Made by a program: the position numbers and the translations under genes. From assembly GCA_949451605.1 (NCBI GenBank), contig CASTSB010000002.1:116771-180770 (forward strand): DNA of 64,000 nucleotides. Reading direction: 5' to 3'. Within the stretch, counting starts at the first letter, position 1, and each line of letters begins with the position of its first letter. The notes under the pieces are model-generated. The model ran no database searches. It saw only the letters and a program-made list of their open reading frames with translations, and was not told where the DNA came from. Positions 30,145 to 57,904 of the stretch are shown here, piece by piece. The stretch is from an uncultured Bacilli bacterium. Lineage in GTDB: Bacteria; Bacillota_I; Bacilli_A; RF39; UBA660.

Positions 30145-30199
30145 AAGTTGGTTTTTTATTTCTATTAATATATAATATACATTGACGGGAGGTGGGCAA

Positions 30200-30994
30200 A
30201 TGGAAAATATAATAGAAATAAATAATCTTAATTATAAAAATATCTTTTCTAATTTTTCCATAAGCCTGCCTAAAAACAAATTCATATCAATCGCTGGATC
30301 AAATAATTGTGGGAAAACAACTTTAGTAAGAATTTTAGATAAAGAAATAGAAACTTCTTCAGAAATTCTTATAAATGCAAAGCCAATAAGTCAATATAAA
30401 ATAACAGAATACTATAAAACTGTCAGGACCATAATCCCAAAGGAATATATAAACACTTTTGCAACTATTGAAGAAGAGCTTAATAATAATCTTGATCAAT
30501 TATTTATTAGCAAAGAAGAGAAAAATAAAAGGATAAAAAGTATCTATAAAAACTTATCTTTAAATCGTATTAAAAAAGATAATATTACTGAACTTTCTAT
30601 AGAAGATTTCATAAGACTTCAAATAGCTGTAGCTGTTTCTTCTATGCCTAAAATTTTAATTATTGATGATATAAGTCCATATTTTTCTGAAGAAGAGATC
30701 TTAGAAGTAATATCTTATTTTAAATATTTGGTATCAAACTATGATTTATCTATTATATTGATTACTAGTAGATTAGATGACGTTATCACTTCTGACTATT
30801 TATATATAATTCATGATAGTAGTATTATCCTAGAAGGTAATCCTATTGATGTCATGAAAAAAGACAATATTTTAAATAGAATAGGTTTAAAGGTACCTTT
30901 TATGATTGACTTATCTGTAAAACTACAAGATTATGCACTGATCGATAATATCGAATTAGATATAGATAGGATGGTGGATAAATTATGGAAATAG
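30200..30994 (+). CDS. ABC-type ATPase, EcfA-like but degenerate
   Basis: The Walker A GSNNCGKTT is present. The signature (LSIEDF), Walker B (LIIDDIS, no catalytic Glu) and H-loop are divergent. Confidence 0.55.
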   Translation: MENIIEINNLNYKNIFSNFSISLPKNKFISIAGSNNCGKTTLVRILDKEIETSSEILINAKPISQYKITEYYKTVRTIIPKEYINTFATIEEELNNNLDQLFISKEEKNKRIKSIYKNLSLNRIKKDNITELSIEDFIRLQIAVAVSSMPKILIIDDISPYFSEEEILEVISYFKYLVSNYDLSIILITSRLDDVITSDYLYIIHDSSIILEGNPIDVMKKDNILNRIGLKVPFMIDLSVKLQDYALIDNIELDIDRMVDKLWK

Positions 30995-31776
30995 TTATGA
31001 TAAATCATAAATTAGAAGATGAAGAGTTAAATCTAGTTATTCCACATAATAAAATTATTGGTTTAGTTAATGATAAAAGTAATAAAATATTTGATTTAAT
31101 TAGTTTAAAAAAAATAGGTAAAGGCAAGATCCTTATAAATAATGAAAAGATTGTTAAAGAAGATATTATTATTCATAGAAAAAGAATTTCAAGAGTAGAA
31201 GATAATATAGATATTCCAAGATTTATTTTAACAGTTGAAGACTTTATGAATATGGAATTTAAAAACAATAATTTGAGTATAAAAAATCCAGACAAAAAAA
31301 TAAGAGATTCTCTTAAAATTGTTGGATTAAATGACAATTATGTAACAAGAACAATAACTTCGCTTTCTAATTCTGAAAAAAAATTAATTTTAATAGCTAA
31401 GGCTTTGTTATCTAATCCAGATACAATCATTTTAGAAGAACCATTTAAATATTTAGATCTAAATCAAGAAAAAAGACTTTTTATGCTTTTATTGAAATTA
31501 AAGGAACAATTTAATAAAACAATTGTATTAAAAAGCGGAGATACAAATAGTATCTATAATTATACAACAGAAGTAATAATTGTTAAAAATGATAATATTT
31601 TAATGCAAGGGGAAACCAAAGAATCATTTCATAGAGTAGATTTTCTAAAAAGAAATGGTATTAAAATACCTAATTGTGTAAAATTTACTTATTTGGCAAA
31701 AAAAGAAAAAGATGTTAAAATAGAATATCACAGCGATATAAGAGATATAATAAAAGATATTTATAAACATGTTTAG
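30985..31776 (+). CDS. ABC-ATPase-like protein, strongly degenerate (no Walker A)
   Basis: Signature-like LSNSEKK and Walker-B-like IILEEPFKYLD are present. The P-loop is replaced by GLVNDKSNK. Confidence 0.5.
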   Translation: MEIVMINHKLEDEELNLVIPHNKIIGLVNDKSNKIFDLISLKKIGKGKILINNEKIVKEDIIIHRKRISRVEDNIDIPRFILTVEDFMNMEFKNNNLSIKNPDKKIRDSLKIVGLNDNYVTRTITSLSNSEKKLILIAKALLSNPDTIILEEPFKYLDLNQEKRLFMLLLKLKEQFNKTIVLKSGDTNSIYNYTTEVIIVKNDNILMQGETKESFHRVDFLKRNGIKIPNCVKFTYLAKKEKDVKIEYHSDIRDIIKDIYKHV

Positions 31777-31794: not shown

Positions 31795-32526
31795 ATGAGG
31801 TTTTTAATAAAGTTTAGTTATGATGGTTCAAATTACGGAGGTTTTCAGACTCAGCCTAATATGAAAACAGTCCAAGAAGAGCTAGAAAAAGCTTTAACTA
31901 AAGTTAATAATGGCAACAAGACTTCTATTACCGCAACGGGAAGAACTGACAAAGGAGTTCATGCTTTATGTCAGTATGGACATGCAGACTTAAATATTGA
32001 AATTACTGAATATAAGCTTAAACGAGCTTTAAATAGTAATTTGCCAGAAGATATACATGTAATTAGTACAAAAATAGTACCAGATAATTTTCATGCTAGA
32101 TACTATGTTAAAAAGAAAGAATATAAATATTATATGAACTTAGGAGAATATAATCCTTTAGAAAGGAATTATGTTTTTCAATATAATTATAAAATTAATG
32201 TAGAAGCAATGTCTAAAGCAATAAAGTATTTTGAAGGAGAACATGATTTTAAAGCTTTCGTAACAGATAACAAAGAAAGAGAAAACTGTGTTAGAAAAAT
32301 ATTTAAAGCATCAATTTATCAACAAGAAAATAAACTAGTATTTACATTTATAGGAAATGGCTTTTTAAGATATCAAGTAAGAAATATGATAGGTTATTTA
32401 ATAAAAATAGGAGAGGAAAAAGCTACTCCTGAAAGTGTAATTAAAGTACTTGAAAGTAAAGATAGAACTAAGTCTGGAAAAACTGCTCCAGCAGAAGGCT
32501 TATATCTATATAACGTAGAATACTAA
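31795..32526 (+). CDS. truA: tRNA pseudouridine(38-40) synthase
   Basis: MRFLIKFSYDGSNYGGFQTQPN...GRTDKGVHA catalytic Asp motif. Confidence 0.9.
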   Translation: MRFLIKFSYDGSNYGGFQTQPNMKTVQEELEKALTKVNNGNKTSITATGRTDKGVHALCQYGHADLNIEITEYKLKRALNSNLPEDIHVISTKIVPDNFHARYYVKKKEYKYYMNLGEYNPLERNYVFQYNYKINVEAMSKAIKYFEGEHDFKAFVTDNKERENCVRKIFKASIYQQENKLVFTFIGNGFLRYQVRNMIGYLIKIGEEKATPESVIKVLESKDRTKSGKTAPAEGLYLYNVEY

Positions 32527-32542: not shown

Positions 32543-32773
32543 ATGTTAGATACACTTACATCTTCATCAACAGCACTTTCTATATTAGAGGCAGTAGATA
32601 ATGAAGATTACACAACAGCAAGCTCATTAAGTGCAAGTTTGTCAACAGCCTTATCATCAATTTCACCAATTCATATTTATATATGCGATGCTTATATAGA
32701 TTCATTATCTAATAATGAATTAGCATCTCTTGAAGAAAAGACAGAAGCTAAAGTATTGACACTTAAGAAGTAA
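32543..32773 (+). CDS. small Ser/Thr-rich protein with conserved C-terminal AY[IV][DE]SLS..EL..L motif (paralog 1)
   Basis: RBS aaggaggt upstream. Shares the C-terminal motif AYIDSLSNNELASLEE with ORFs at 33598 and 33922. Confidence 0.5.
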   Translation: MLDTLTSSSTALSILEAVDNEDYTTASSLSASLSTALSSISPIHIYICDAYIDSLSNNELASLEEKTEAKVLTLKK

Positions 32774-32843
32774 CCGTAAGGTTGCTTTTTTTATGCAATT
32801 ATGTTATAATAGGCCCGTTAAAAGTTATAAGGGGTTATGGTAA

Positions 32844-33614
32844 ATGAAAGAAGATAAATTAGCTATAAAAAAGAAAATTAAATTATATGAAAAACTAGGA
32901 GCAAGAAACTTTCAATCCTTTGTTTTCAAAATAGAAGATATTAAATGGAAAGTTATAAAAAAAGTGTTTCCTAACTATCTTAAATTTGTTGATAAAATGA
33001 TTGATAAAAAGACTATTAAATTCCTCAAACGAGCCAAAACGGAAGACATAAAAGATAAAATTAAAATGATTACTAAAATAGAAAAAATGAAGTCAAGAAA
33101 AGAATATAATAGAACTGAAAATATTAATTATCATATAAGTAAAAGTAATCCAACAGATTTTCTATATTATTTAAACTGGAACAAATCTATTCATAAAAAA
33201 GGACTAATAAAGGATTTAATCTTACTACCAATTACAATAATAGCTATAACAAATAGTGCTGCAATAGCAATACCATTAGTAATCTATAACTTAAGCAGTT
33301 TATTCATTAATTTTCAATGTATAAACTTACAAAATTATAATATTTCTAGAATTTCTTTAATAAAAGAAAAACTTGAAAAACAAGAAAAGAAAAAAATTGA
33401 GAATGACATATCCAATTATGGTGATGCTATTAATTTAGTAAGTAATACTATAAAAGATAAAGAAAATATCCCTACAATCGAAGATATAGTAAATAATATC
33501 AAAACAAAAGCGCAGGCTGAACAATTAAAGCAACTTATTTTAAGAGAAAAACTAGAAAGAGAAAATAATAAAAAAAATATAAAAGGAGGAAAACAATATG
33601 GCATTAATAGATAA
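32844..33614 (+). CDS. membrane protein, possibly glycosyl-4,4'-diaponeurosporenoate acyltransferase-like family
   Basis: 256 aa. N-terminal K.KLYEKLGARNFQSFVFKIEDIKWKVIKK resembles that family. One or two predicted TM helices. The assignment is tentative. Confidence 0.4.
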   Translation: MKEDKLAIKKKIKLYEKLGARNFQSFVFKIEDIKWKVIKKVFPNYLKFVDKMIDKKTIKFLKRAKTEDIKDKIKMITKIEKMKSRKEYNRTENINYHISKSNPTDFLYYLNWNKSIHKKGLIKDLILLPITIIAITNSAAIAIPLVIYNLSSLFINFQCINLQNYNISRISLIKEKLEKQEKKKIENDISNYGDAINLVSNTIKDKENIPTIEDIVNNIKTKAQAEQLKQLILREKLERENNKKNIKGGKQYGINR

Positions 33615-33912
33615 TATAGCATTATATTTTGCAGGAACAACACTTACAGGTAGTGCTGTAAAAGCAATATCTTATATATCAGAGGATAATGAGCCACATC
33701 CAGATAGGGTTAAGAAAGTGGGAATAACAACAACAGTAACAGGAGCAACATTAACAACAATTGCATCTCACTCATTCACAAGACATGCAAGCTATAATGA
33801 AACACATGCTTATATTGAATCATTAAGTGATGAAGAGTTGGCATCCCTATCAGAAATGTTAGAAATAAATGATAATAATATTGATACTGGCAAAAAAGTA
33901 AAAAGATTATAG
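33598..33912 (+). CDS. small protein, paralog 2 (C-terminal AYIESLSDEELASLSE motif)
   Basis: RBS aaaggagga upstream. Carries the conserved C-terminal motif. Confidence 0.5.
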   Translation: MALIDNIALYFAGTTLTGSAVKAISYISEDNEPHPDRVKKVGITTTVTGATLTTIASHSFTRHASYNETHAYIESLSDEELASLSEMLEINDNNIDTGKKVKRL

Positions 33913-33921
33913 GAGATAATT

Positions 33922-34233
33922 ATGGAAGAATTATTTACACTAGGGTTTGCATTATCAAATACATTTGCTGCAGAGGCAATTTTAATTGAACCAGATGATG
34001 AACTAAATGATCATATTCCTATGATTTCTACAATATTTACAGTTGCTAGCATAGACATTACTGTAATAGGTAAGGAATTTATTATTCCTGAAGTTCAAAA
34101 AATGAAAGCAACTTCAGCTTATGTAGAGTCTCTTAGTGATGAGCAATTAACCACTTTATCTGACGTTTTAAACTCAAAAAGCTTACAACTTGAAAATGAT
34201 AATCCTAAAATACTATCTAAAAAGTTAAAATAG
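33922..34233 (+). CDS. small protein, paralog 3 (C-terminal AYVESLSDEQLTTLSD motif)
   Basis: RBS taggag upstream. Carries the conserved C-terminal motif. Confidence 0.5.
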   Translation: MEELFTLGFALSNTFAAEAILIEPDDELNDHIPMISTIFTVASIDITVIGKEFIIPEVQKMKATSAYVESLSDEQLTTLSDVLNSKSLQLENDNPKILSKKLK

Positions 34234-34254: not shown

Positions 34255-34283
34255 TTGATTTTTAAAGTAATATTTAGTATAAT
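34255..34283 (+). promoter_or_regulatory. sigmaA-type promoter for rplM-rpsI, followed by a 5' leader
   Basis: TTGATT, 17-nt spacer, TATAAT. An ~80-nt leader (34284-34363) precedes rplM. Confidence 0.55.
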
Positions 34284-34363: not shown

Positions 34364-34795
34364 ATGAATAGTTATATGCAAAAAAAAGAAACTGTAGAAC
34401 GTAAATGGTATGTTATCGATGCTGAAGGAAAATCTTTAGGTCGTGTTGCATCACTTGCAGCTACATACTTACGTGGAAAAAACAAACCAACTTATACTCC
34501 ACATATTGATTGCGGAGATAACATCATTATTATTAATGCTAAAAAAGTTAACTTAACTGGTAACAAATTAAATGATAAGATGTATTATAATCACTCAATG
34601 TATACTGGCGGATTAAGAGAAAGAAACGCTAAAACAATGAGAGAAGAATATCCAGAAGAAATGATGGAAAGAGCTGTAAAAGGTATGCTTCCACATAATA
34701 GACTTGGAAGACAAATGTACAAAAAATTATTTGTATATGCAGGAAATGAACATAAACATGAAGCACAAAAACCAGAAGTGCTTGAAGTTAAGTAG
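34364..34795 (+). CDS. rplM: 50S ribosomal protein L13
   Basis: [19 protein letters not shown] matches L13. Confidence 0.93.
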
Positions 34796-36024: not shown

Positions 36025-36103
36025 AGATTAAATCATTGTTTAACAATGATTTTTTTTGTCTCTATTTAAGGTTATAAAGAATAAAATATTACAAGGAGGT
36101 TTT

Positions 36104-36442
36104 ATGTTAAGTTTAAGTTATTTAAAAGAATATATAATGGTTTCAATCGCATTAAGTACAGTAACATGTGCATTTATTCAAAAGACAAAAGGTTTAATTA
36201 AACCAAAATCTTTAATTATTTGGTACTCATTTTTTGTAAATATTTTATTTAGTATAATCTTTTGCCAATCATTTACCAAAATTAATTTTCCTGATAGCTT
36301 ATGGACAGGATTGTTTTCCTTCATAGGCGCAGATACTTTATATAAATCTCTTGAAGGTAAATTATCATCTTATACTGAAATAAGAAGCTCAAAAGAAGTA
36401 GGTATAAAAAAGGAAAATATTCTTAATAAAAAGGAGGGTTAA
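36104..36442 (+). CDS. small membrane protein (holin-like topology)
   Basis: 113 aa from ATG 36104, which follows RBS aaggagg. Two or three TM segments followed by a charged C-terminus. Confidence 0.4.
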   Translation: MLSLSYLKEYIMVSIALSTVTCAFIQKTKGLIKPKSLIIWYSFFVNILFSIIFCQSFTKINFPDSLWTGLFSFIGADTLYKSLEGKLSSYTEIRSSKEVGIKKENILNKKEG

Positions 36443-36443
36443 A

Positions 36444-37127
36444 ATGGAAAAGCCAATTTTTCCTAGTAAATATATGAGGATTACTCAAGGGTATGATGAA
36501 GGTACTCATAAATCATCTTTTGCAATAGACAATGCAGATAAAGATTCAGGCATTAGTGATATATACGCTCCATTTACTGGAATTATTAAAAAGATTTACC
36601 AAAATGATGCTAACGAAGTATGGCTAGAAAGTCTTGAAAAAGTTGAATATCCAGATGGAACTAAAGATTATATGACAATTTTATTTGCTCATAATAATGA
36701 CGTTTCTAACTTATTTGTAGGTAAAAAAATAAATCAAAATGAAGCATTTTATAAAGAGGGTACTAAAGGTAATGCTAGCGGAAATCATTGTCATATAGAA
36801 TGTGGACAAGGTAAATTTAATGGAACTGGCTGGCATAAGAATGCGGCAGGATATTACAGTATAAATAATAGTAAAAGACCAGAAGAATGTTTATGGTTAG
36901 ATGATTCTATAAAGATTTTAGATAGTCACAATTATAGTTGGAAAAGAATAGAAAAATCCACAGAACCTGTGGAAAAAGAAGAAAAACCACCTGTTAAAGA
37001 AGAAGATAATAAAAATCCAGAAAAAGATGAAGAAAAAGAGTATCCAAAAAAATTTAAATATGTTTGTGAAAAAGATGATCTTTATGGAATTTATTTAAAA
37101 AAAGGTGAAACTTTGTATTTAGAATAG
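36444..37127 (+). CDS. M23-like metallopeptidase-domain protein without signal peptide, with Lys/Glu-rich C-terminal tail
   Basis: GNASGNHCHIE matches the M23 motif-2 pattern (compare LytM GNSTAPHVHFQ). Upstream THKSSFAIDNAD may be a divergent HxxxD. No N-terminal hydrophobic segment. Confidence 0.4.
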   Translation: MEKPIFPSKYMRITQGYDEGTHKSSFAIDNADKDSGISDIYAPFTGIIKKIYQNDANEVWLESLEKVEYPDGTKDYMTILFAHNNDVSNLFVGKKINQNEAFYKEGTKGNASGNHCHIECGQGKFNGTGWHKNAAGYYSINNSKRPEECLWLDDSIKILDSHNYSWKRIEKSTEPVEKEEKPPVKEEDNKNPEKDEEKEYPKKFKYVCEKDDLYGIYLKKGETLYLE

Positions 37128-37200: not shown

Positions 37201-40200
37201 ATGATAGTCAGGCTAATTAAAAAAAGTAAAATTATAAATTTTAATTTACCTACTACTGTATCAGGTAATTATTGGATTACCGATACTGACTATTTAGGAA
37301 ACACCAGAAATCTTATAAATGTAGAAGAATCCGATGGCAAATGGAAAATAAAAAGTGATTTTGAAACTAAAATAATGGCTGGTTCTAGAGAAATAGAATC
37401 AGCATTTCTTAGTGATTATAGTATGTTCTTTTTAAAAATAAATACAGATAACGAATATGTAATTTTATATTGCTCCCCTAATGCGGATAAAAGCATCACC
37501 ACTTTACAAGCAAGTGATAATACAGATTACATAATAGGTAATGATGGAAAGGCCTCAATCAGTTATTTAAACCCTTTAGTATCAAAACAACATGCTAAGT
37601 TAACTCTATCAAATGGTGTATGGTCCATTTTAGATTTAAGTAGCAAATATGGTACTTATGTTAATAATAATGCTGTATTACAACAAACTTTAGAGTTTGG
37701 TGATATAATTTTCATTTTAGGTTTAAGAATTATTATTATGAATAAAACTATAATAATAAATAATATAGGTAATTATGTTTCATTTGATTCAAGTGTTTTT
37801 AAGAAAATGATGCCTATTGTTCAAAAACAAACTTCACAAGATAATCCAGATGAAGAACAAATCGAATTTTTTAAAGAAGATGATTATTTTTATCGTGCAC
37901 CAAGATTTAAAACTAAGATAGAAGATGTTGATATAACTATAGATCCACCTCCAGGTAAGGAAGCAGAAGATGATACTCCAGCTATTTTATCAGTAGGTCC
38001 AATGCTTACAATGGGAATGGTTTCAGGATCAACTGCATTTACCACACTAAATAGCGTTCTAAATGGTAGTATGGATCTTAGCAATGCATATCCAAGTCTT
38101 TTAATGTCAGGTGGAATGCTTGCAACAATGCTTTTGTGGCCAATAATTAATAAAAAATATCAAGCATATAGACATAAGAAAAAAGAAGAATTAAGGCAAT
38201 CAAAATATACAGAATACATTGAGGAAAAAAGATTAAAAATACAATCAGAAATGAAGATTCAAAGACAAATTTTAATCGACAATTATCTTCCAGTTACGCA
38301 AACTAAAGAAATAATTTATAGTAAAAAAAGAAACTTATGGGAACGTGAGTTAGATCAAGATGATTTTTTAGATTTACGATTAGGAATAGGTTCTACTAAT
38401 TTAAAAGGTAAGATAAATTTTCCACAATCACATTTTGCTTTAGAAACTGATAATCTATTAGAACAAGTTTACAAATTAGGTGCAGAATCAACTATGCTTG
38501 AAAATGTACCTATATCTCTTTCCTTCTTAAAAAATAGAATCACAGCTATTATTGGGTCAGCAAGTATAAAAAATCAATTTATAGATGCTTTAGTACTACA
38601 GATGATTACATATCATAGTTACGAAGATTTAAAAATTGTAATAATGACTGATGAAAAAAACGAAAATCGTTGGGAATACTTAAAAATAGTTCCTCATTGT
38701 TGGAATAATGAGAAACAACAAAGATATTTTGTAACAAATTTAGATGAAGCAAAAGAGCTTTCACTTGCCCTAGAGCAACAGATTCAAGCAAGAAGAAATA
38801 AGGAAACAAATGGAAAAATAGAAAAATCTACATTAGATTATCATCATTACAAACCTTACTACATGATAATAACAGATAATTATAAAATGTATCGTGATGT
38901 TGAATTAATTAAAGATATTGCTGAAATGGATATAAACTATGGATTTAGTTTAATGGTGGTAAGTCCAAGATTAATAAATATTCCTAATGAATGTAAAACT
39001 TTTATTAGTATTGGAGATAAAAAGTCAGGAATATTTGAAAATGAATTAGTTTCTAATAAGCAAAAGGAATTTGCTGCTGATTATGATCCAACATTGAACA
39101 TGTATGAATGCTGTAAAATATTAGCTAATATTCCTATTGATATTGCAAAAGAAGATCAAAATTTACCAGCTAGTTTGTCATTTTTGGAAATGTATAACGT
39201 TGGAATGGTAGAACAATTAAATATTCAAAATAGATGGAAAACAAATGACCCAACTAAATCTCTTCAAGCACCTGTTGGTCTTGATAGGCAACATGAACTA
39301 TTCAAACTAGATCTTCATGAAAAATTTCATGGACCACATGGTTTAGTAGCAGGTATGACTGGTTCAGGTAAATCTGAATTTATAATTAGTTACATAGTTT
39401 CTATGGCTATAAACTATCACCCTTATGAAGTATCATTTGTTTTAATTGACTATAAAGGTGGAGGATTAGCAGGAGTATTTCAAAATAAAGAAACTGGAAT
39501 GAAACTTCCACATCTTGCAGGTACTATTACCAATTTAGATACTGTTGAAATGAATCGATCTTTAGCGTCTATTCAAAGTGAGTTAAGAAAACGTCAAAGA
39601 ATTTTTAATGAGGCAAGAGACAAATTAAATGAAAGTACAATTGATATTTATAAATATCAAGGATTATATAGAAAAGGTTTAGTAGATAAACCAGTTTCTC
39701 ATTTATTTATTATTTCTGATGAATTTGCAGAATTAAAAGCTCAAAGACCTGAGTTTATGGATCAACTTATTTCTACTGCACGTATCGGACGTTCTTTAGG
39801 TGTTCACTTAATCCTTGCCACTCAAAAACCAAATGGAGTAGTAAACGATCAAATTTGGTCTAATACTAAATTTAGAGTCTGTTTAAAAGTTCAAGATAAA
39901 TCTGACAGTATGGATATGATAAAAGTTCCAGATGCAGCTTCTTTAAAAAACCCAGGAAGATTTTATTTACAAGTAGGTTACAATGAATTATTTGCACTAG
40001 GACAAGCCGCTTGGGCTGGAGCACAATACTTTCCAACAGAAAAAAGAAAGAAAAAAATTGATCAGTCTATAAGTATCTTAGATAATATAGGTAATACAAT
40101 TAAGTCTTTAGATACTAAACAAAATGAAGTAACAGTTGAATCCAAAGGTGAAGAAATAACTAATATTGTAAAATACATTGTTAATGAAGCTAGTATTGCT

Positions 40201-41787
40201 AATATCTCTATTGACCAATTATGGCTTGATAGAATCCCAGACATCATATTTGTTGAGAATTTAAGAAAAAAATATAATTATGTAATTGAAAAGAATAATA
40301 TAAATCCAATTATAGGAGAATATGATGATCCTGATAATCAAAGACAAGCTCTATTAACATTACCTCTATCAAAAGAGGGAAATACCATCATATTTGGTTC
40401 AGCTGGTAGTGGAAAAGAACTAATGATATCAAGTATTATATATTCAACTATCACAACACATGATTCAAGTGAAGTTAATTTTTATATAATAGACTGTGGA
40501 GCAGAAACTTTATCAGTATTTAAACAAGCCCCACATGTCGGAGAAATATTACTAGTAAATGAAAAAGAAAAAATAGAAAATTTATTTAAAATGATTCTTC
40601 AAACTATTGAAGTTAGAAAAAAAATCTTAGTTGATTACAATGGTTCATATGACTTTTATGTTAATCATGGAGGAAAGGATATGCCTCTTCTTACAATAGT
40701 AATTAATAATGCAGAAGCTTTTTTTGAAAATTATAATGACTATGAAGATGCTATTTCTCAACTAACCAGAGACTGTTTAAAATATGGAGTTATCTTTATT
40801 TTAAGTACAAATGGTCCAAATACATTAAGATACAAAGTAAAACAAAACTTTAGTCAAAATGTTGTTTTACAATTCAATGATCCTTCAGACTATATTTCTG
40901 TAATACCTGGTGTAAGAAAGAAAGAGCCATCTAAAATCTTTGGTAGAGGATTAATGCTTTTAGATAATATTTATGAATTTCAAACTGCTTATCCATATAA
41001 ACAAGATTTAATGACTGATTATATAAAAATAGTTTGTAAAAAGCTTAAAAATATATGTAGTTACCAAGCTAAAAAGATTCCAGTTTTACCTGAAGTCGTA
41101 ACTCTTAATGAAGTAGAAGAATATCTTGGTAATGAAACAACTCTACCAGTTGGTATAGAAAAAGAATCTTTAGATATTTCAACTATTAACTTAAATGAAA
41201 ATATTATGTTTAATATAACAGGAGAAGACATAACTGCAGAACCTGATTTCTTATTTGGAGTAATCAAGTCTGCTTGTAAAATAGCTTCTTCAAGTGTATT
41301 TGTGCTTGACACTCAAGATATTTTAGAAGATATTGATAAAGGTAATATTGATAATTTAGTTTATCAATCAGGAGATGTAAGTCAAGCTTTAGAATCTCTT
41401 GCAGTAACTATTAATACAAACATTGATAATGGTACTTCTAATCCTATAATATGTATGTTAATAGGGCCTATGAATTTTATGAATAAAGCTGAAGAAGCAC
41501 AAAAAAATCAATTCAATTCTATAGTTGAAGTCTCAACACAACAAACAAATATCAAATTTATTATGGTTGAAACAATTAATAACATCAAGACAATAGCCTT
41601 TGAACCATGGTACAAGAATAATACAGACCTATCAGAAGGTGTTTGGATTGGAAATGGAATAGGAAACCAATTTACTCTAAAAGTTACAACAGCCGCAAGA
41701 ATTTTACGAACAGAAATAGAACCAAACTTTGGTTACACTATTCATAAAGGTAAAGCGAAATTAATTAAACTAATTTCAGGAAAATAG
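37201..41787 (+). CDS. essC: type VII secretion system FtsK/SpoIIIE-family ATPase EssC/YukB-like
   Basis: 1528 aa. Two N-terminal FHA-like modules, two TM helices (about aa 255-315), and three P-loop ATPase domains (D1 Walker A GMTGSGKSE, D2 GSAGSGKE, a degenerate D3). Confidence 0.8.
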   Translation: MIVRLIKKSKIINFNLPTTVSGNYWITDTDYLGNTRNLINVEESDGKWKIKSDFETKIMAGSREIESAFLSDYSMFFLKINTDNEYVILYCSPNADKSITTLQASDNTDYIIGNDGKASISYLNPLVSKQHAKLTLSNGVWSILDLSSKYGTYVNNNAVLQQTLEFGDIIFILGLRIIIMNKTIIINNIGNYVSFDSSVFKKMMPIVQKQTSQDNPDEEQIEFFKEDDYFYRAPRFKTKIEDVDITIDPPPGKEAEDDTPAILSVGPMLTMGMVSGSTAFTTLNSVLNGSMDLSNAYPSLLMSGGMLATMLLWPIINKKYQAYRHKKKEELRQSKYTEYIEEKRLKIQSEMKIQRQILIDNYLPVTQTKEIIYSKKRNLWERELDQDDFLDLRLGIGSTNLKGKINFPQSHFALETDNLLEQVYKLGAESTMLENVPISLSFLKNRITAIIGSASIKNQFIDALVLQMITYHSYEDLKIVIMTDEKNENRWEYLKIVPHCWNNEKQQRYFVTNLDEAKELSLALEQQIQARRNKETNGKIEKSTLDYHHYKPYYMIITDNYKMYRDVELIKDIAEMDINYGFSLMVVSPRLINIPNECKTFISIGDKKSGIFENELVSNKQKEFAADYDPTLNMYECCKILANIPIDIAKEDQNLPASLSFLEMYNVGMVEQLNIQNRWKTNDPTKSLQAPVGLDRQHELFKLDLHEKFHGPHGLVAGMTGSGKSEFIISYIVSMAINYHPYEVSFVLIDYKGGGLAGVFQNKETGMKLPHLAGTITNLDTVEMNRSLASIQSELRKRQRIFNEARDKLNESTIDIYKYQGLYRKGLVDKPVSHLFIISDEFAELKAQRPEFMDQLISTARIGRSLGVHLILATQKPNGVVNDQIWSNTKFRVCLKVQDKSDSMDMIKVPDAASLKNPGRFYLQVGYNELFALGQAAWAGAQYFPTEKRKKKIDQSISILDNIGNTIKSLDTKQNEVTVESKGEEITNIVKYIVNEASIANISIDQLWLDRIPDIIFVENLRKKYNYVIEKNNINPIIGEYDDPDNQRQALLTLPLSKEGNTIIFGSAGSGKELMISSIIYSTITTHDSSEVNFYIIDCGAETLSVFKQAPHVGEILLVNEKEKIENLFKMILQTIEVRKKILVDYNGSYDFYVNHGGKDMPLLTIVINNAEAFFENYNDYEDAISQLTRDCLKYGVIFILSTNGPNTLRYKVKQNFSQNVVLQFNDPSDYISVIPGVRKKEPSKIFGRGLMLLDNIYEFQTAYPYKQDLMTDYIKIVCKKLKNICSYQAKKIPVLPEVVTLNEVEEYLGNETTLPVGIEKESLDISTINLNENIMFNITGEDITAEPDFLFGVIKSACKIASSSVFVLDTQDILEDIDKGNIDNLVYQSGDVSQALESLAVTINTNIDNGTSNPIICMLIGPMNFMNKAEEAQKNQFNSIVEVSTQQTNIKFIMVETINNIKTIAFEPWYKNNTDLSEGVWIGNGIGNQFTLKVTTAARILRTEIEPNFGYTIHKGKAKLIKLISGK

Positions 41788-41796
41788 GAGGTATAT

Positions 41797-42051
41797 ATGA
41801 ATAATAAAATATTAATAGAACTAGATATTCCTTTAATAGAAAAGTCTTATGATTTATACATTCCTATCAATAAAAAAGTCGGAACAATAAAAAAGTTAAT
41901 TGAAGAAGAATTAGTATCTCTAACAGAGGGTGCATACATTTTATCAGATTCTACTAATCTTTATAGTAAAGAAACAGGAGATATTTATGATATAAATAAA
42001 ACTGTTAGGGATACAGATTTAAAAAATGGTTCAAGAATTATTCTACTATAG
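41797..42051 (+). CDS. esaB: EsaB/YukD-like ubiquitin-fold T7SS protein
   Basis: 84 aa immediately downstream of essC. KILIELDIPL...YDLYIP...GSRIILL is a YukD-like pattern. Confidence 0.65.
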   Translation: MNNKILIELDIPLIEKSYDLYIPINKKVGTIKKLIEEELVSLTEGAYILSDSTNLYSKETGDIYDINKTVRDTDLKNGSRIILL

Positions 42052-42060
42052 GAGGTATTT

Positions 42061-42291
42061 ATGTCAGATTATAATAAATATGTTTTAGCAATCAATAAAA
42101 TATTTGAAGTATTAAATAACTGCAAACAAAAATGGAAAGACAATGATAATTTAACTAAAATTGCTGACTTAGAAGAATATCGCAATATAGTAATTAATGC
42201 AGCAAACTCTTTTTCTAATTCAAATAAATCTGAAAATATCACAGAGCAAGACGATATGAAACAAATAAATAATTTAGAAGGTGCAAAATGA
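42061..42291 (+). CDS. small helical protein (candidate T7SS-associated)
   Basis: 76 aa with RBS taggaggt upstream. No WXG motif. Confidence 0.4.
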   Translation: MSDYNKYVLAINKIFEVLNNCKQKWKDNDNLTKIADLEEYRNIVINAANSFSNSNKSENITEQDDMKQINNLEGAK

Positions 42292-42515
42292 TAGATCAAA
42301 TAAGCTATGATGAGATGGAAAGCTATTCAAAAGAACTTGAAGCAAGTGCAGATGCATTAAAAGCTTTAATAGAAGAAAAAGATTTAAAAGAATTAGAAAA
42401 TTTTGTTGATTCCGTATACAATTATTCAGAATATCTATCATCAACTGTAGAATTACATAAGACTGCAGATGAAGCACTAAACTATTTAGAAAGCAACAAA
42501 AGAACTTCCAATTAA
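42288..42515 (+). CDS. small helical protein (candidate T7SS-associated)
   Basis: 75 aa. Overlaps the upstream ORF by 4 nt (ATGA). Confidence 0.4.
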   Translation: MIDQISYDEMESYSKELEASADALKALIEEKDLKELENFVDSVYNYSEYLSSTVELHKTADEALNYLESNKRTSN

Positions 42516-44704: not shown

Positions 44705-45652
44705 ATGATAGAGAAAAAATTCAAGAATTTAGATGAGCAAATTGAAATATTTAAATCAAAAGACCTAATTATCAATGATGAAAAATATGTAAAAGAGATC
44801 TTACTAAGAGAAAATTATTTCTTTATCAATGGTTATAGGCACTTATTCATGAAATCAAAGAAGGATAGGCAATTCATTCATGGAACAACATTTGAAGAAT
44901 TATACAGCTTATTTTTATTTGATAGATCATTTAGAAATATTTTGTTTAAATACTTACTAGTAATCGAAAATAACTTAAAATCAATTACATCTTACCAATT
45001 ATCTAGAAAATATGGATATCGTGAAAGTGATTATTTGAGAGCTAAAAACTTTACACAAGCACCAGATAAACAAAGGCAAATTAATGACCTACTTAGAAAA
45101 ATGAAAAGACAAATAAGAATTAATGGTTCACAACATAGCGCAACTCACCATTATGTATCAAATTATGGATATATTCCTTTGTGGATACTAGTTAAAGTTT
45201 TATCGTTTGGAATAGTAAGTGAAATGTTTTCAATTTTAAAATCTGAAGACCAAAAAGAAATAGCAGAAGTTTATGATATTGAAGTAGATGCTTTAGAGAC
45301 TTATTTACCAATTCTTGCAAATTATAGAAACTTATGTGCACATGAAGATATTTTATATGAAAATAGAACTCAAAAGGAAATAAATAATACTGTATATCAT
45401 CAATTATTAAAAATACCAAAAGAAAATGATGAATATATTCAAGGTAAAAACGATGTTTTTGCTTTAATTATCATTTTAAAACAAATGTTAACTCATGAAG
45501 ATTTTAAAAATATGACATTGGAGCTAGATAATGTTATTCAAACGCTTAATTATAATTTAAATACTATTAAAATAGATATAATTTTAGAAAGAATGGGCTT
45601 CCCATTAAATTGGAAGGAATTAGCAAAAATCGAAAGGAGTGTTGATGAATAA
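44705..45652 (+). CDS. abortive-infection protein, Abi_2 (AbiD/AbiF) family, HEPN-type
   Basis: The N-terminus FKNLDEQIEIFKSKDLIINDEKYVKEILLRENYFFINGY matches Abi_2. HEPN Rx4H motif YRNLCAHED. Confidence 0.7.
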   Translation: MIEKKFKNLDEQIEIFKSKDLIINDEKYVKEILLRENYFFINGYRHLFMKSKKDRQFIHGTTFEELYSLFLFDRSFRNILFKYLLVIENNLKSITSYQLSRKYGYRESDYLRAKNFTQAPDKQRQINDLLRKMKRQIRINGSQHSATHHYVSNYGYIPLWILVKVLSFGIVSEMFSILKSEDQKEIAEVYDIEVDALETYLPILANYRNLCAHEDILYENRTQKEINNTVYHQLLKIPKENDEYIQGKNDVFALIIILKQMLTHEDFKNMTLELDNVIQTLNYNLNTIKIDIILERMGFPLNWKELAKIERSVDE

Positions 45653-51564: not shown

Positions 51565-51751
51565 TCCATAGTACCTTTACGGTTATATGGATTTCCGTAT
51601 TCGGTTTTACATGTAGAATAGATAATAAAAAATAAAGTAATAAAACTAATAGTTAAAGATGTTAAAGGAAAAATGAAACAAATTAATAAGAAAAAATAAA
51701 TTTATTATGAAAAAATATGATATAATTATTATGGAAGTGTAGGTGGTAAAA

Positions 51752-52627
51752 ATGAAGAAAAAACAAAATTTATTGTTACAACCAGTTTTAAAATGGGCTG
51801 GAGGGAAAAGACAATTAATTCCTCAGTTGGAAAAATTTTTTCCAAAAAAATTTACTACCTATTATGAACCTTTTATAGGTGGAGGAGCAGTATTATTCCA
51901 TTTACAACCATCAAAGGCAGTAATTAACGATTTCAACGAGGATTTAATAAATTGCTATAGGTGTATAAAAGATAATTTGGATGAACTGATAGAAAAATTA
52001 AAATATTATGAGGCAAAAAATGATTCAGAGAGTTATTATGAAATAAGAGCTATTGATAGGACTGAAGAATATAAAAGTTGGAGTCCAGTAGAACGAGCAG
52101 CAAGGTTAATATATTTAAATAGAACATGTTATAACGGTTTGTTTAGAATGAATAGTGCTGGTCAATTTAATTCTCCATTTGGGTCTTACAAAAATCCTTG
52201 TATATGTAATGAACCTGTCTTAAGAGCAATAAATAAATATTTTAATGAAAATGAAATAGAGTTTAGATCAGGAGATTTTTATGATGCATGTATTGATGCT
52301 CCAAAGGGATCATTTATATATTTAGATCCTCCTTACGATCAATATGATGAACAAGTTAATTTTGTTGGTTATACAAAAAATGGTTTTTCAAGAACTGATC
52401 AAGAGCGTTTAAAGAATATGTGTGATGAATTAATTGAGCGTGGATGCTATATTATGGTAAGCAATTCAAAAACTCCTTTTATTGTTAATTTATATAGTGA
52501 TACAACAAAATATATAACTTATACAATTAATACGGTGAATGCAAGGAGAAATATAAATAGTAATGCTCAAAAGCGTGGTGAAGTTGAGGAGGTTTTGATT
52601 ATTGGAAAATTGGATATCAAAGAATAA
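51752..52627 (+). CDS. Dam-family N6-adenine DNA methyltransferase (D12 class)
   Basis: LKWAGGKRQL, EPFIGGGAV, DPPY and NRTCYNGL motifs. ATG 51752 follows RBS aggtgg. Confidence 0.85.
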   Translation: MKKKQNLLLQPVLKWAGGKRQLIPQLEKFFPKKFTTYYEPFIGGGAVLFHLQPSKAVINDFNEDLINCYRCIKDNLDELIEKLKYYEAKNDSESYYEIRAIDRTEEYKSWSPVERAARLIYLNRTCYNGLFRMNSAGQFNSPFGSYKNPCICNEPVLRAINKYFNENEIEFRSGDFYDACIDAPKGSFIYLDPPYDQYDEQVNFVGYTKNGFSRTDQERLKNMCDELIERGCYIMVSNSKTPFIVNLYSDTTKYITYTINTVNARRNINSNAQKRGEVEEVLIIGKLDIKE

Positions 52628-53900
52628 TAAAGCATGGAATGAACTGTTTGAAAGATTTAATATTATTAATGCAATAGAAGGAAATGGTTTTTTTGAAATT
52701 ACTGCTGATCAAATTAAAGAATCAGGAAGAGAGCCAAGATTAATGACTAAGTTTGATAGCAGTGAAAATTTACCAACAATTTTTGCAGAAAATAACCTAG
52801 CAATATTGCCAATTAAACGTGGCTCATATATTATAGGAAAATTTCAAAATTATCAAACTGTTGAATTAAATAATGATTTAGATGTTGAAACTAAATATTT
52901 ACCAGATTATATTTCAACTATTGATTACAGTAATATTCCAAGTGAAGCAATATCGTTAAATTCTGCATATATCTCTGGAATGATTGAAGATATTGTTGGA
53001 GAAGAAGTTGTACCTACTATACAAGGAAGAATGGGAACTGGTGAATTCAATTATCAAATATCATTAAAAGATAATAATAAATTTGATGTAAGTGTTCAAA
53101 ATTCTCAAATGGAAATAGACGGTAGTTATGAGGGAATAAGTAAATTTGTAATATTCGAAGCAAAAAATCATTACATGAAAGATTTCATAATAAGGCAATT
53201 ATATTATCCGTATAAAGTTTGGAAAAAAGTTACGCATAAAGAAATAATTCCAATTATGTTAATTAAGCATGATAATATATTTAATTTTTTTATCTATGAA
53301 TTTTTAGATGAAAATAATTATAATAGTATAAGATTAAAGAAAATCAAAAGATATATTTTAGATGAAATATATAATCCAATCGAAGTTGTTGACATACAAA
53401 ATATTATGAATCAAGTTGAATTTGTTAAAGAAGATAATGTCCCTTTTCCACAAGCAAATTCTTTTTATAGAGTTTTAGATTTAATCAATGAATTAAATAA
53501 TCAAGAATTATCTGCAAGTGATATTGCAGACATTTATGAATTTGATATTAGACAAGCAAATTATTATTTAGCTGCTGCACAATATTTAGGCTTAGTTGTG
53601 AAAGATAAAAACTACAAATTATCTGATCATGGAAAAAGTATAATGCAAATGAACCATAAAAATAAGAATTTAGCAATTATTAGTATTATTTTATCTCACA
53701 AACCTTTTTACTGTGCACTTGAGCAATATTTAACAAATTTTGAATTTGATTATTCAGAAATAGCAAAAGTTATTTATGAAAATAGAGATGAAATCAATTC
53801 AACTGGAACGGCAGAAAGAAGAACAAGTACTGTAATTGCTTGGGTTAAATGGATTATGGAATTAACAACTGTTTTTGAAAGAAATCCTTTTGATGAATAG
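52602..53900 (+). CDS. putative restriction endonuclease partner of the Dam-family methyltransferase
   Basis: 432 aa. Overlaps the MTase 3' end by 26 nt. No motif recognised. The assignment rests on its context. Confidence 0.4.
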   Translation: MENWISKNNKAWNELFERFNIINAIEGNGFFEITADQIKESGREPRLMTKFDSSENLPTIFAENNLAILPIKRGSYIIGKFQNYQTVELNNDLDVETKYLPDYISTIDYSNIPSEAISLNSAYISGMIEDIVGEEVVPTIQGRMGTGEFNYQISLKDNNKFDVSVQNSQMEIDGSYEGISKFVIFEAKNHYMKDFIIRQLYYPYKVWKKVTHKEIIPIMLIKHDNIFNFFIYEFLDENNYNSIRLKKIKRYILDEIYNPIEVVDIQNIMNQVEFVKEDNVPFPQANSFYRVLDLINELNNQELSASDIADIYEFDIRQANYYLAAAQYLGLVVKDKNYKLSDHGKSIMQMNHKNKNLAIISIILSHKPFYCALEQYLTNFEFDYSEIAKVIYENRDEINSTGTAERRTSTVIAWVKWIMELTTVFERNPFDE

Positions 53901-54025
53901 AATATTAAATGGAGAAAGAAACTCCATTTTTATTTTAGTTCTTTATAATAATTGCAAAATATTTTAAAAATATTTTGCAATTATTATTTATTTGTGATAT
54001 TATATAGTTGATTTTGGAGGTGTCT

Positions 54026-54244
54026 ATGGAAACTATAAAACAACAAAACTTTAAAAGGATTGCTGAAAATAGAATAAATAAAATTGTTGATTTAATTTCA
54101 AAACTTCATAATCTATCAAATTCATCATTTTATGAATATACAGATGAACAAATAGATAAAATGTTTGATATTATCCAAAAAGAATTGGATAGACAAAAAG
54201 AAGAATTTAAAAAGAAAGGAAAAAATAGAAAAATAGAATTGTAG
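54026..54244 (+). CDS. small protein, first gene of the GHKL operon
   Basis: 73 aa with RBS ggaggtg upstream. Largely helical and charged. Confidence 0.45.
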   Translation: METIKQQNFKRIAENRINKIVDLISKLHNLSNSSFYEYTDEQIDKMFDIIQKELDRQKEEFKKKGKNRKIEL

Positions 54245-54254
54245 GTGTAGTAAG

Positions 54255-56183
54255 ATGTTTAATGAATTATTTTTTAAAGATAAGCCAAAATGGAAATTTA
54301 TTGAAAACAACTATGGTAATGATAACGGTCTAGACTCTACTGACATGGAAACTTTTAAAAAAGATCCTATTGCCTCATTGGCTAGGGAATCATGTCAAAA
54401 TTCAGTAGACGCGCAAAAGAGCGAAAATGCCGTTTTAATTCAGTTTAAAGTGTTTTATATGGATACAAAAGAAATTCCCGGTATAAACGATTTGATTAAT
54501 GAAATTACAGCATGTAGAAATTCAAATGTAGAGGGTAGTAGACAATATATTCAATTTAATAATATGCTTGAATATTTAAAAAATAAAAGTATTCCTTGCT
54601 TAAGAATTAGTGACTTCAATACAAAAGGATTAGAAGGAGTACGAAATAATTCAAGAGACAAGGCCTTTTATAGATTAACTAAAGGAAATGGTCAAACAAC
54701 AAAAGAAAATGGAATTAATGGTGGTTCAAAAGGTATTGGTAAATTTGCCTCATTTGTTAATAGTCAAATCCAAACTGTTTTCTATTCTACGTTAAATATG
54801 GATAACGAGAAAGGTTTTTTGGGGATTTCTAAATTAGCTTCACGACCTTTAGATAATGAACTATTGTGTACAACAGGATATGGGTACTTTTCAAGAACTG
54901 AAAAAGTTTTACCAATATTAGATGATTTAAATCTAGATAAAAACTTTATGAGAACTGAAACGGGAACAGATATATATATTTTAGGATTTAAAATTGAAGA
55001 ATCATGGAAAAAAGACATAATAACTAAAGTTTTAGATAGTTTTATGTGTGCTATACATTTTGGTAAATTAGGTGTTGAAGTAGATGATGTATTATTAACA
55101 AAAGATACATTAAAAGATATTGTTTATAATGAAAAATATATTAATGGTGTGAAAGATAAAAGAAGAATTATAAGTCAATATATTCTTTTAAATAATGATT
55201 ATGTTCACAAAAAAGAATTTAACATTAATGGATATGGAAATTTTGAAGTTTATGTTAGGGAATTTAATAGAGAAGACGAGTATTTAGCTACAAAGAAATG
55301 TTCAATGATTAGATATCCTTATATGAAAATAAAAGATTTTAATGTGGCTTGCGCAGTACCATGTTCTGCCCTATGTATAATACCAGAAAACAAATTAAAT
55401 AAAACACTTATCGATATAGAAAATCCACAGCACACTGACTGGGAATATCTTCGTTTAAATCCTGATGACAGAAAATTAATGCGAAAATTATTGAATGAAT
55501 TAGAAAGAACTATATCCGAATATGCAAATGAATGTTTATTGAATGGTAAAAATGAAGAGATAGATATGGAAGGTGCTGGGGATTTATTACCAGATTTAGA
55601 TAATTATATTGATGTTTCATTATCTAATTCGGAAGTTGAATCTAATAAGCCGCGTATAATAAGTGTTGTACAAAATAAAGTAAAAAATACTTTTGGTGAA
55701 GTAGAAGATGAAAACGCTATTTCTAATCAGCCAGATATTGGAACACATATTGATGAAGATGTTGATGATGTTTCTCCTATACCTGAAGGTCAAAATGAAC
55801 ATTCTGGAGCAGATGTACATGATTCTCAAAATGAAACAGGATATTCTTCAGACGGAAACGATGAAATAATGAAAGAAGTTTCTTTATCTGGAATTAAATC
55901 TACCATCTTTATTTTAAATAAAGAGTTAGGTAAATATGCAATTAGTTTTAATTCAATATATGATGAAAAAAATTGCGAATTAGAAATGTATTATCTTGAT
56001 GATTCTGACAATAAGTATAAAGCTTTAATAAAGTCTTGTACTATTAATGGTGAAGATGGAAAAGTAGAAAACGGAAAAATTGTAAATATGAATCTAAAAA
56101 AAGATACAATGTATAAAATAGAAGTTCATACAAATTTAAATGATATTTATGCCTGTGAGGTGAGATTATATGCGATTAGGTAA
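54255..56183 (+). CDS. GHKL-superfamily (MutL/Hsp90/MORC-like) ATPase-domain protein
   Basis: N-box-like ASLARESCQNSVDA, a G1-like DFNTKGLEG, a G2-like GINGGSKGIGKFASF. An acidic linker (aa ~440-520) and a C-terminal domain follow. Confidence 0.6.
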   Translation: MFNELFFKDKPKWKFIENNYGNDNGLDSTDMETFKKDPIASLARESCQNSVDAQKSENAVLIQFKVFYMDTKEIPGINDLINEITACRNSNVEGSRQYIQFNNMLEYLKNKSIPCLRISDFNTKGLEGVRNNSRDKAFYRLTKGNGQTTKENGINGGSKGIGKFASFVNSQIQTVFYSTLNMDNEKGFLGISKLASRPLDNELLCTTGYGYFSRTEKVLPILDDLNLDKNFMRTETGTDIYILGFKIEESWKKDIITKVLDSFMCAIHFGKLGVEVDDVLLTKDTLKDIVYNEKYINGVKDKRRIISQYILLNNDYVHKKEFNINGYGNFEVYVREFNREDEYLATKKCSMIRYPYMKIKDFNVACAVPCSALCIIPENKLNKTLIDIENPQHTDWEYLRLNPDDRKLMRKLLNELERTISEYANECLLNGKNEEIDMEGAGDLLPDLDNYIDVSLSNSEVESNKPRIISVVQNKVKNTFGEVEDENAISNQPDIGTHIDEDVDDVSPIPEGQNEHSGADVHDSQNETGYSSDGNDEIMKEVSLSGIKSTIFILNKELGKYAISFNSIYDEKNCELEMYYLDDSDNKYKALIKSCTINGEDGKVENGKIVNMNLKKDTMYKIEVHTNLNDIYACEVRLYAIR

Positions 56184-57078: not shown

Positions 57079-57079
57079 T

Positions 57080-57904
57080 ATGAATAAAACTATTAATATT
57101 TCTTTTATGACAGATGAAGCATTAGAAACTTTGAGAGAAAATAGTGATAGAGTATCAGAGTATATTAAATCAAATAAACTTGATTCTAGTTGGATCCATG
57201 AACTTTATAGTGGAAAGGTATATGATTTAAAGAAGGAAAAAATAAATGACTTTGAACTAAAAACTTCCTTAAATGATAATTATAAAGAAGTAGAACTTGA
57301 TAATGCTGTAATATTATATGAATCATTAAAAGATTTGCCTAGATGTATTATTACAGATGAAAGATTTTGGGCTTGGATTAATCTAAATAAATGCTATAAA
57401 GCTACAACTCAAGCAATGCCAATTAAGTCGTCATCAACTTTTAAAAACATGTGGTTATTTACGCAAGGAAAGAGAAGAGGTATTTTCTTTGGAGCAAATT
57501 CTAGATTATATTTTTGGACAGAATTAACAGTAGATGATGAATCATTAGAGGATAAATATTTATATACAAGATTTGTATTTGAAAATCATGAGAGAATAAG
57601 ACAATTAACATGGAGATCAAATTCAAACAATAAACATATTGTATTAAATGTGGTAAAAGCTGAAAAGATGCTATATGATAAATATGCGAAGAATTCTGAA
57701 TACATGGAGGCATTTAATAAATGTGAAAGAGGTGTTGGAACTCGTAATATTTATACTGCTATTTCAAAATATTTATCATTATATGGAAGTGTAAGAGTAT
57801 TAGATGTTATATCAGATGAAGATTTGCAAAATTTCATCTATAATAAACTTGAAGAAATATTATTTGAAGTACAGAAAAATAATATGGAAATTTTTAATAT
57901 GTAA
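57080..57904 (+). CDS. hypothetical protein (GHKL operon gene 4)
   Basis: 274 aa. ATG 57080 follows RBS ggagga and sits 1 nt after the upstream stop. Confidence 0.45.
   Translation: MNKTINISFMTDEALETLRENSDRVSEYIKSNKLDSSWIHELYSGKVYDLKKEKINDFELKTSLNDNYKEVELDNAVILYESLKDLPRCIITDERFWAWINLNKCYKATTQAMPIKSSSTFKNMWLFTQGKRRGIFFGANSRLYFWTELTVDDESLEDKYLYTRFVFENHERIRQLTWRSNSNNKHIVLNVVKAEKMLYDKYAKNSEYMEAFNKCERGVGTRNIYTAISKYLSLYGSVRVLDVISDEDLQNFIYNKLEEILFEVQKNNMEIFNM

Follow-up and report, generated by a model that had tools for sequence, protein, structure and literature searches.

The 64-kb window analysed here (the whole stretch of 64,000 nucleotides, from an uncultured Bacilli bacterium of the RF39 lineage) carries, between truA and rplM, a block of three small open reading frames (ORFs) and one gene for a membrane protein of 256 aa. 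Throughout, the small-protein family is called S and the 256-aa membrane-protein family is called B, and the relationship between the two is the subject of the present analysis. The original prediction had placed three small ORFs of 76, 104 and 103 aa, each with a ribosome-binding site (RBS), in a block between truA and rplM, and this arrangement holds: an RBS of the GGAGG/GGAG type can be read 6–9 nt 5' of every small ORF. The features of the block and its flanks are as follows:

31795-32526: truA, the upstream flank of the block.
32543-32773, + strand: the upstream S gene (76 aa), 17 nt past truA, with the motif AYIDSLSNNELASLEE at 32690-32737.
32770-32792, + strand: a terminator-like hairpin, GTAACC-GTAA-GGTTGC, followed by T7 and overlapping the stop of the 76-aa gene (read by eye).
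32802-32810, + strand: an extended -10 element, TGnTATAAT, after the hairpin (read by eye).
32844-33614, + strand: B (256 aa), a basic membrane protein, its ORF lying between the 76-aa and 104-aa genes.
33598-33912, + strand: the first downstream S gene (104 aa), overlapping the end of B by 17 nt, with the motif AYIESLSDEELASLSE at 33808-33855.
33922-34233, + strand: the second downstream S gene (103 aa), a tandem paralog, with the motif AYVESLSDEQLTTLSD at 34117-34164.
34255-34283, + strand: a promoter-like site, TTGATT, a 17-nt spacer and TATAAT, ahead of rplM at the downstream end of the module.
34364-34795: rplM, the downstream flank of the block.

The hairpin at 32770-32792 was not listed by a consensus terminator scanner and is a tentative call made by eye; if it is real, B and the two downstream S genes would constitute a separate or attenuated transcription unit. 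Scanning for promoters and terminators is of little use in the DNA of the window (27% G+C), and a search of Rfam returned no RNA element between 28 and 38 kb of the window.

The three small proteins of the window have in common the segment AY[IV][DE]SLS..[EQ]L. The claim that the DNA encoding this segment has drifted with the peptide being kept is correct, because between pairs of copies 7–12 of 16 residues are identical versus 28–35 of 48 nucleotides, and 4–7 conserved residues per pair are encoded by different codons. The relaxed pattern Y[IVL][DE]S[LM][STDN][DENS].[EQ][LI] has three matches when the window is translated in all six frames, and none in 50 shuffles. The 104-aa and 103-aa proteins align over their full length (BLASTP E=4e-8, 30% identity), the 76-aa protein aligns with the 104-aa protein through the motif (BLASTP E=3e-5), and a hidden Markov model (HMM) of the S family recovers all three (E=3.8e-14 for the 76-aa, 1.8e-28 for the 104-aa and 4.7e-25 for the 103-aa protein). 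A protein identical to the 76-aa S is recorded on 19 contigs. Measured against a sister species (locus L095), the ratio of nonsynonymous to synonymous substitution rates (dN/dS) comes to 0.17 (104-aa gene), 0.24 (103-aa gene), 0.125 (B) and 0.08 (truA), and the 76-aa gene, compared with that species' two upstream S genes, gives ~0.5; the S genes are therefore protein-coding and under purifying selection. The three ORFs are real paralogous protein genes, as had been proposed, and it is virtually certain that B, too, is a real gene.

Beyond the species of the window, the family was reached only by sensitive searching. When the three small proteins served as queries in a word-indexed search, same-species alleles alone were returned, and an exhaustive HMMER search of 1.84 billion representative proteins yielded ~40 further S proteins of 89–135 aa; the motif is kept in the distant homologs, and the check that the original prediction had proposed thus came out in its favour. 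The remote homologs P0074–P0079 have an N-terminal PHPDR.KK and TTT.TG.TTT pattern in common with the 104-aa protein. Members of the family consist of an N-terminal part of ~50–70 residues, then the motif, an acidic linker and a short basic end (e.g., K-x-L-x-K-K-L, P-K-V-Y-x-K or x-K-T-[IL]). The motif had been placed at the C-terminus; it actually lies about two-thirds of the way along the protein, with 20–45 residues after it, and starts at residues 50–71 of the window's 76–104-aa S proteins. As a logo of 137 anchored sequences it reads [AT]-x-[AS]-Y(90%)-[VI]-[ED]-S-[LM]-[ST]-D-E-[EQ]-L(88%)-A-x-L-x-x-x-L-[DE]-x-K-E, the most constant positions being Y (90%), S (~96%, 137/143), the adjacent L (84%) and L at +6 (88%). 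The motif Ser is not an absolute requirement, Ala, Thr or Val standing in its place in 6 of 143 S members.

The N-terminal parts are Ser/Thr-rich, as originally described (the family average is 16.7% Thr, 11.5% Ser and 10.8% Ala), nearly without Trp and Cys (Cys 0.9%), and are usually made up of two weakly hydrophobic stretches with an acidic or Gly turn between them. In a hydrophobic-moment test, their helical or strand periodicity was no greater than in shuffles, and they did not cluster into upstream and downstream subfamilies, because their low-complexity composition ties all of them together. A membrane-grade hydrophobic segment is missing from 99 of 103 S members (and present in 4/103), and a signal peptide was not found in the S proteins. 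Searches of Pfam (E<=1), NCBIfam, PHROGs and PADLOC gave no significant family for S, and a full-text literature search with the motif string found no paper in the library searched. An AlphaFold2 model of S alone is of low confidence, with a mean predicted local distance difference test (pLDDT) score of 53, and puts S-L-S at a break between two helices.

The genomic context was surveyed by scanning one genome per GTDB species, which gave 76 loci with a B gene, and HMMs of both families were run on all ORFs there. By HMM, an S gene stands directly beside B on the same strand at 74 of the 76 loci (65 downstream and 38 upstream copies), and at the two others (L045 and L052) a small ORF of S build, with a degenerate motif (e.g., KYMSYTTDEELSIL, ending KQLIKTL), lies downstream of B. 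An S-type gene accordingly adjoins B at 76/76 species loci, with 1–4 copies of S per B; the co-occurrence with the 256-aa membrane protein that the original prediction had proposed to check is present, and the pairing is obligatory. The start of the downstream S gene is <=~4 nt from the B stop in most loci, with the 17-nt overlap in the window, a closeness that indicates coupled translation of B and downstream S; upstream copies are set apart from B by a gap of ~10–90 nt. The charges of the two proteins are complementary (median net charge +20 for B and -7 for S), and the negative charge of S is concentrated in the motif and linker. A functional link between B and S is very probable.

At ~50 loci the gene order is SDR-ecfA-ecfA'-truA-[S]-B-[S]-rplM-rpsI. 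At the other ~26 loci, B-S is found elsewhere, in arrangements such as gyrA-B-S-ylbD(-ylbE), yqeY-B-S-yqfC-yqfD and polC...S-S-B...murF-ddl, or with a class II tRNA synthetase or a histidine kinase as neighbour; since the pair is present in unrelated neighbourhoods, it travels as a unit, independent of its neighbours. The pair is inherited vertically as part of the core genome and is no mobile cassette, and no modification enzyme or exporter lies consistently near it across the loci. The hosts of these loci are uncultured gut metagenome-assembled genomes that bear the labels 'Bacilli bacterium', 'Tenericutes/Mollicutes' or 'Mycoplasma sp. CAG:877'; CAG-877 is a GTDB genus of the family CAG-611, order RF39 (PMC8035907). 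The CAG:877 locus (L047) has the truA...rplM layout of the window.

Two coupled genes with a basic and an acidic product, in variable copy number, also recall a toxin-antitoxin or addiction pair in which B would be a basic membrane toxin and S its acidic antidote, and toxin/immunity peptides had been among the functions first suggested. However, synteny and vertical inheritance of the locus extend over an order-level clade, a tblastn search of 50,697 phage and 72,556 plasmid records turned up nothing matching B, PADLOC is blank, PHROGs offers only matches at E>0.01 to function-unknown families, and B has invariant enzyme-like residues (described below) and is under strong purifying selection. 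An addiction pair is, on this evidence, highly improbable.

Within the species, the downstream S genes vary from strain to strain. The window and loci L007–L009 have the 104-aa and 103-aa genes in tandem, strains L091–L093 have the 104-aa gene together with a 102-aa allele with a different tail, and strains L001–L006 have a single 107-aa gene in which the N-terminal part of the 104-aa protein is joined to the motif and tail of the 102-aa allele. The junction of this hybrid falls exactly at the start of the motif (...NET/SAYVESL...), the outcome that would be expected of unequal recombination between tandem copies at the conserved motif. In the sister species the arrangement is S-S-B-S-S. Farther downstream in the same species, a phage-type integrase and an S24/helix-turn-helix repressor stand right after rpsI at L091 (2393-3289) and L093 (1986-2882), whereas in the window that position is taken by DUF3781 and by a membrane protein of 141 aa; the stretch past rpsI is apparently a site of integration or variation.

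The membrane protein B belongs to a larger family, with 67 relatives at 31–76% identity in a single-sequence search and 287 clusters in a profile search. None of the 287 clusters has a Pfam domain, and the source names are 'hypothetical protein' only. The AlphaFold2 model of B is confident (pLDDT 89.2) and all-helical, comprising four N-terminal helices, two long helices (103–136 and 142–172) and C-terminal helices; the sole hydrophobic hairpin, at about residues 121–162 (hydrophobic from 121–139 onward), lies within the two long helices. The first 100 residues have a net charge of +18 and the tail one of +6, and because of this positive charge both ends are predicted to be cytoplasmic (positive-inside rule). 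Conservation was computed from 210 distinct sequences of a family that counts at least 210 members, and twelve residues are 100% conserved (A20, V27, E31, N93, N95, Y96, H97, N113, H117, C159, N161 and Q163). In the model, these residues immediately precede the first helix of the hairpin or lie where the second one ends, on what would be the cytoplasmic face of the membrane, and the combination of an invariant Glu, two His, a Cys and several Asn/Gln has the look of a metal or catalytic site.

The only sign of kinship between B and a known family is a faint one. The window's B matches PF18927 (CrtO, glycosyl-4,4'-diaponeurosporenoate acyltransferase) at 13.9 bits (E=0.068), short of the gathering cut-off of 27.3 bits; the same family recurs in 10 of 33 B members, with a best E of 0.0016 and all matches sub-threshold, and the next family recurs in 3/33. 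Residues 57–173 of B align with positions 13–120 of the 123 of the profile, such that the match takes in the membrane hairpin and nearly the whole profile. CrtO and B are alike in being small and helical, in residing in the membrane and in having conserved polar residues at its interface, although B is ~90 residues longer and has additional N- and C-terminal helices. A carotenoid context of the crtOPQMN type is also lacking for B, whose neighbours are truA, rplM, rpsI, ABC ATPases and an SDR and, elsewhere, gyrA, yqeY and polC, and CrtO is not known to have a small partner protein. Of the earlier description of B as acyltransferase-like there remains, then, this recurrent echo of CrtO, whereas a match above threshold was never obtained; acyl-transfer chemistry is a doubtful, tentative assignment. 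Nothing significant was found for B in NCBIfam, PHROGs, PADLOC or PDB sequence-profile searches, and when the modelled B was compared with PDB and BFVD by Foldseek, the best E was 0.7 and TM-scores were ~0.2.

Several other identities were considered for B and rejected. Since ecfT is missing from the ecfA-ecfA'-truA operon, EcfT (CbiQ) was tested; there was no CbiQ match at E<=1, B has a single hairpin versus the at least 4–5 membrane helices needed, and an EcfT chain was not among the listed Foldseek matches. The gene layout and sizes of B-S resemble those of ExbB-ExbD, TolQ-TolR and MotA-MotB, and ExbB, TolQ and PomA chains do appear among the non-significant Foldseek matches (TM ~0.2, E>1); an ExbB-like stator was nevertheless discarded, as S, unlike the partners of the ExbD/TolR/MotB type, has no hydrophobic membrane helix and no conserved Asp in one. 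The idea that S is a duplicated piece of B was likewise dropped, a profile-profile comparison with the C-terminal helices of B aligning only 19 columns at 1.9% probability. The protein P0070, in which the N-terminus of B is followed by a PlsC-type acyltransferase C-terminus, looks like a chimeric assembly on a 1.1-kb contig and was not used.

The two ABC ATPases upstream of truA, in the ecfA-ecfA' position (30182-31776), are divergent in their own right (ABC_tran E=9e-17 and 2.5e-9), and in the sequence of the second, read by eye, neither a Walker A (GLVNDKSN) nor an LSGGQ signature (LSNSE) can be recognised. Neither is an ecfT gene found after them, nor any EcfT-like multi-pass protein in the 64-kb window.

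We favour, with a probability of roughly 0.35 for the statement as a whole, a reading in which S binds by its conserved handle to the basic helices of B, B is an enzyme of the inner membrane face, possibly related to CrtO, and S is its subunit or client. B would be anchored by its helical hairpin with both termini in the cytoplasm, and the Glu/His/His/Cys/Asn cluster at the junction of hairpin and cytoplasm would form a site for catalysis or for a cofactor on the inner membrane face. S would be a cytoplasmic, acidic protein of ~100 aa whose Y-V-E-S-L-S-D-E-E-L helix junction serves as a common handle, docking on the strongly basic cytoplasmic helices of B. Such docking might put the hydroxyl-rich Thr/Ser N-terminal part at or near the conserved site of B, with S acting either as an obligate subunit or cofactor or as the substrate, and one B might serve 1–4 S paralogs, alike in the handle and different elsewhere. 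Physical docking through the motif we take to have about an even chance, the complementary charges being consistent with it. A bolder version is a long shot: B would be a new membrane-interface enzyme that recognises S by the internal YVESLSDEEL handle and acylates or otherwise modifies its hydroxyl-rich N-terminal hairpin or, in a structural variant, the Thr/Ser hairpins of S would line a polar channel in a ring of B hairpins.

Several observations weigh against this picture of a docked S and an interfacial enzyme. The model of S alone is poor, and the motif helix is weakly amphipathic (0.247 versus 0.197 for shuffles). Translational coupling to B is lacking for the upstream S copies, and that of the window is followed by the terminator-like hairpin, which is more like a precursor-peptide gene than like a subunit gene. 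The similarity to CrtO is far under the Pfam threshold, and no carotenoid or lipid genes are nearby. In addition, the two semi-hydrophobic, small-residue-rich segments in the N-terminal part of S could be buried in a membrane complex.

A more specific assignment for S would be as an acyl- or peptidyl-carrier-like protein, with the Ser of [DE]-S-L bearing a prosthetic group and passing acyl groups to B. The phosphopantetheine site of carrier proteins has the pattern D-S-L-x-x-x-E-L. In S, an acidic residue, Ser and Leu followed by x-x-x-E-L at a helix start resemble this site, and S is small, acidic and paired with an acyltransferase-like protein; yet there is no PP-binding match in Pfam even at E<=1, the Ser is swapped for Ala, Thr or Val in the six members noted above and lost in the two degenerate copies, and Tyr stands where carrier proteins need Gly, Asn or Gln. 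Moreover, the motif at two-thirds of the chain leaves no space for a four-helix bundle beyond it, and the S model is of low confidence. We consider a carrier function scarcely credible.

Alternatively, S might comprise the precursors of exported or modified peptides (bacteriocin-, signal- or RiPP-like, i.e., ribosomally synthesized and post-translationally modified), with B as the maturation, export or immunity protein. This is suggested by the occurrence of 1–4 S paralogs with one B, their handle conserved and their Ser/Thr-rich parts divergent, by the shuffling of copy number and alleles between strains, and by the hairpin and T-run after the upstream S, as in many precursor genes. The arrangement resembles that of prochlorosins, in which one larger protein (ProcM) is encoded beside small paralogs (ProcA) with one kept segment and a diverging hydroxyl-rich part. 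B-S differs from ProcM/ProcA in that the recognition segment is internal rather than N-terminal, Cys is almost absent (the 0.9% of the N-terminal part given above), the coupled translation of downstream S and B points to equal amounts of the two and not to an enzyme with its substrate, and the pair belongs to the core genome; unlike ProcM-type enzymes, B has no lanthipeptide, cyclodehydratase or radical-SAM domain.

In the consensus of double-glycine leaders, as found in class II bacteriocins and competence pheromones, hydrophobic and acidic residues are spaced as L(-12)/E(-8)/L(-7)/I(-4), and the L-S-x-x-E-L-x-x-[LIV] spacing of the S motif matches this. A Gly-Gly (or Gly-Ala/Ser) cleavage site two residues past the conserved hydrophobic position is absent, however, motif positions +11/+12 being mainly E/Q/A and K/L/M; the motif lies in the second half of the protein with 20–45 residues after it, and no C39 exporter is consistently present. 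Putative C39-type ABC exporters, judged by eye from N-terminal sequence, do lie <=4 kb from B-S at L058, L069 and L080; these three of 76 loci represent two lineages, which is about chance expectation by a rough estimate, and no known modification enzyme is consistently adjacent. The module is also syntenic across the order, with B missing from the phage and plasmid collections and PADLOC blank. Finally, the N-terminal part of the 104-aa protein is not hypervariable, because it is ~90% identical between sister species (our own count) despite a whole-gene synonymous divergence (dS) of 0.76. Secreted, modified, signalling or toxin/immunity peptides, the functions first proposed for the small proteins, thus find no support in a family without signal peptide, membrane segment, Gly-Gly site or a consistent modification enzyme or exporter, and we consider a precursor function unlikely.

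The genes downstream of the block raise a further possibility, that S proteins are substrates or accessory factors of an adjacent secretion system of type VII-like character, with B among its membrane components. At 37201-41787, 3 kb downstream of the block, lies the gene for a 1528-aa EssC-like ATPase that has FHA and FtsK domains, and an EssC-like gene lies downstream of rpsI in ~14 related loci, within 4-kb flanks. S proteins, like WXG100 proteins and other substrates of the type VIIb system, are ~100 aa long, lack a signal peptide, come as several paralogs and vary between strains. DUF4176 is typical of type VII toxin loci, and at L045 (5206-8753) B-S is directly followed, in the place of rplM, by a 129-aa helical protein, a DUF4176 protein (E=1.5e-28) and a >955-aa protein without Pfam match. 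Against such a role, Trp makes up 0.1% of S residues, hence there is no WXG motif, and S has neither a WXG100 match in Pfam (E<=1) nor a confident helical hairpin. S seems tied to B rather than to the EssC-like gene: rplM, rpsI and 3–4 more genes intervene in the window, and in ~26 loci B-S is far from any homolog of the window's EssC-like gene. Better substrate candidates stand right after that gene, namely the 84-, 76- and 75-aa ORFs at 41797-42515, and B is like no type VII component in Pfam or PDB. A type VII role for B-S is quite unlikely.

The EssC-like locus (37201-42515) is of interest by itself. Its ATPase (FHA + FtsK/SpoIIIE) is followed by the 84-aa ORF, which has a faint ubiquitin-like match, and by the 76- and 75-aa ORFs, which are helical; profile matches to EssB, EsaA or WXG100 were not seen in 35.3–58 kb of the window, and the locus may represent a type VII-like system of RF39 in minimal or divergent form. 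Between it and the block, soon after rpsI (36056-37127), lie two genes, one holin-like (128 aa, phrog_1299, E=6e-4) and the other endolysin/M23-like (227 aa, phrog_9066, E=1e-14; Peptidase_M23 E=0.015). No other phage genes surround this pair, and homologs of both are found after rpsI in many related species, which points to domestication of a lysis-type pair, perhaps for use by the secretion ATPase next to it. Farther downstream, an Abi_2 gene (44705-45652) and, at 51743-57904, a D12 adenine methyltransferase followed by a DUF6996/DUF6997/DUF7226 protein, together with a DUF6339 protein, may form a defence island.

The B-S pair appears to stand outside the known kinds of system, although the weak link to CrtO may yet make B a divergent member of a known family. 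No significant match to a curated family, a solved structure or a predicted viral structure was obtained for either protein family. The pair is well-defined microbial dark matter and does not answer a standing question; were it only a lineage-specific accessory complex, its interest would be modest. Small-genome Bacilli such as RF39 and its relatives are frequent inhabitants of the human and animal gut of which none has ever been grown in culture, and the pair is kept in all 76 sampled species that carry B, often inside housekeeping operons, which makes a basic cell function likely. The invariant Glu/His/His/Cys/Asn site of B offers a testable handle on 'dark' membrane biochemistry in these organisms. 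If the bolder version holds, in which B modifies S, the result would be small proteins that are anchored by lipid or inserted into the membrane with no need of a signal peptide, and if B either modifies or complexes S, the pair would represent a new class of small-protein-based membrane system.

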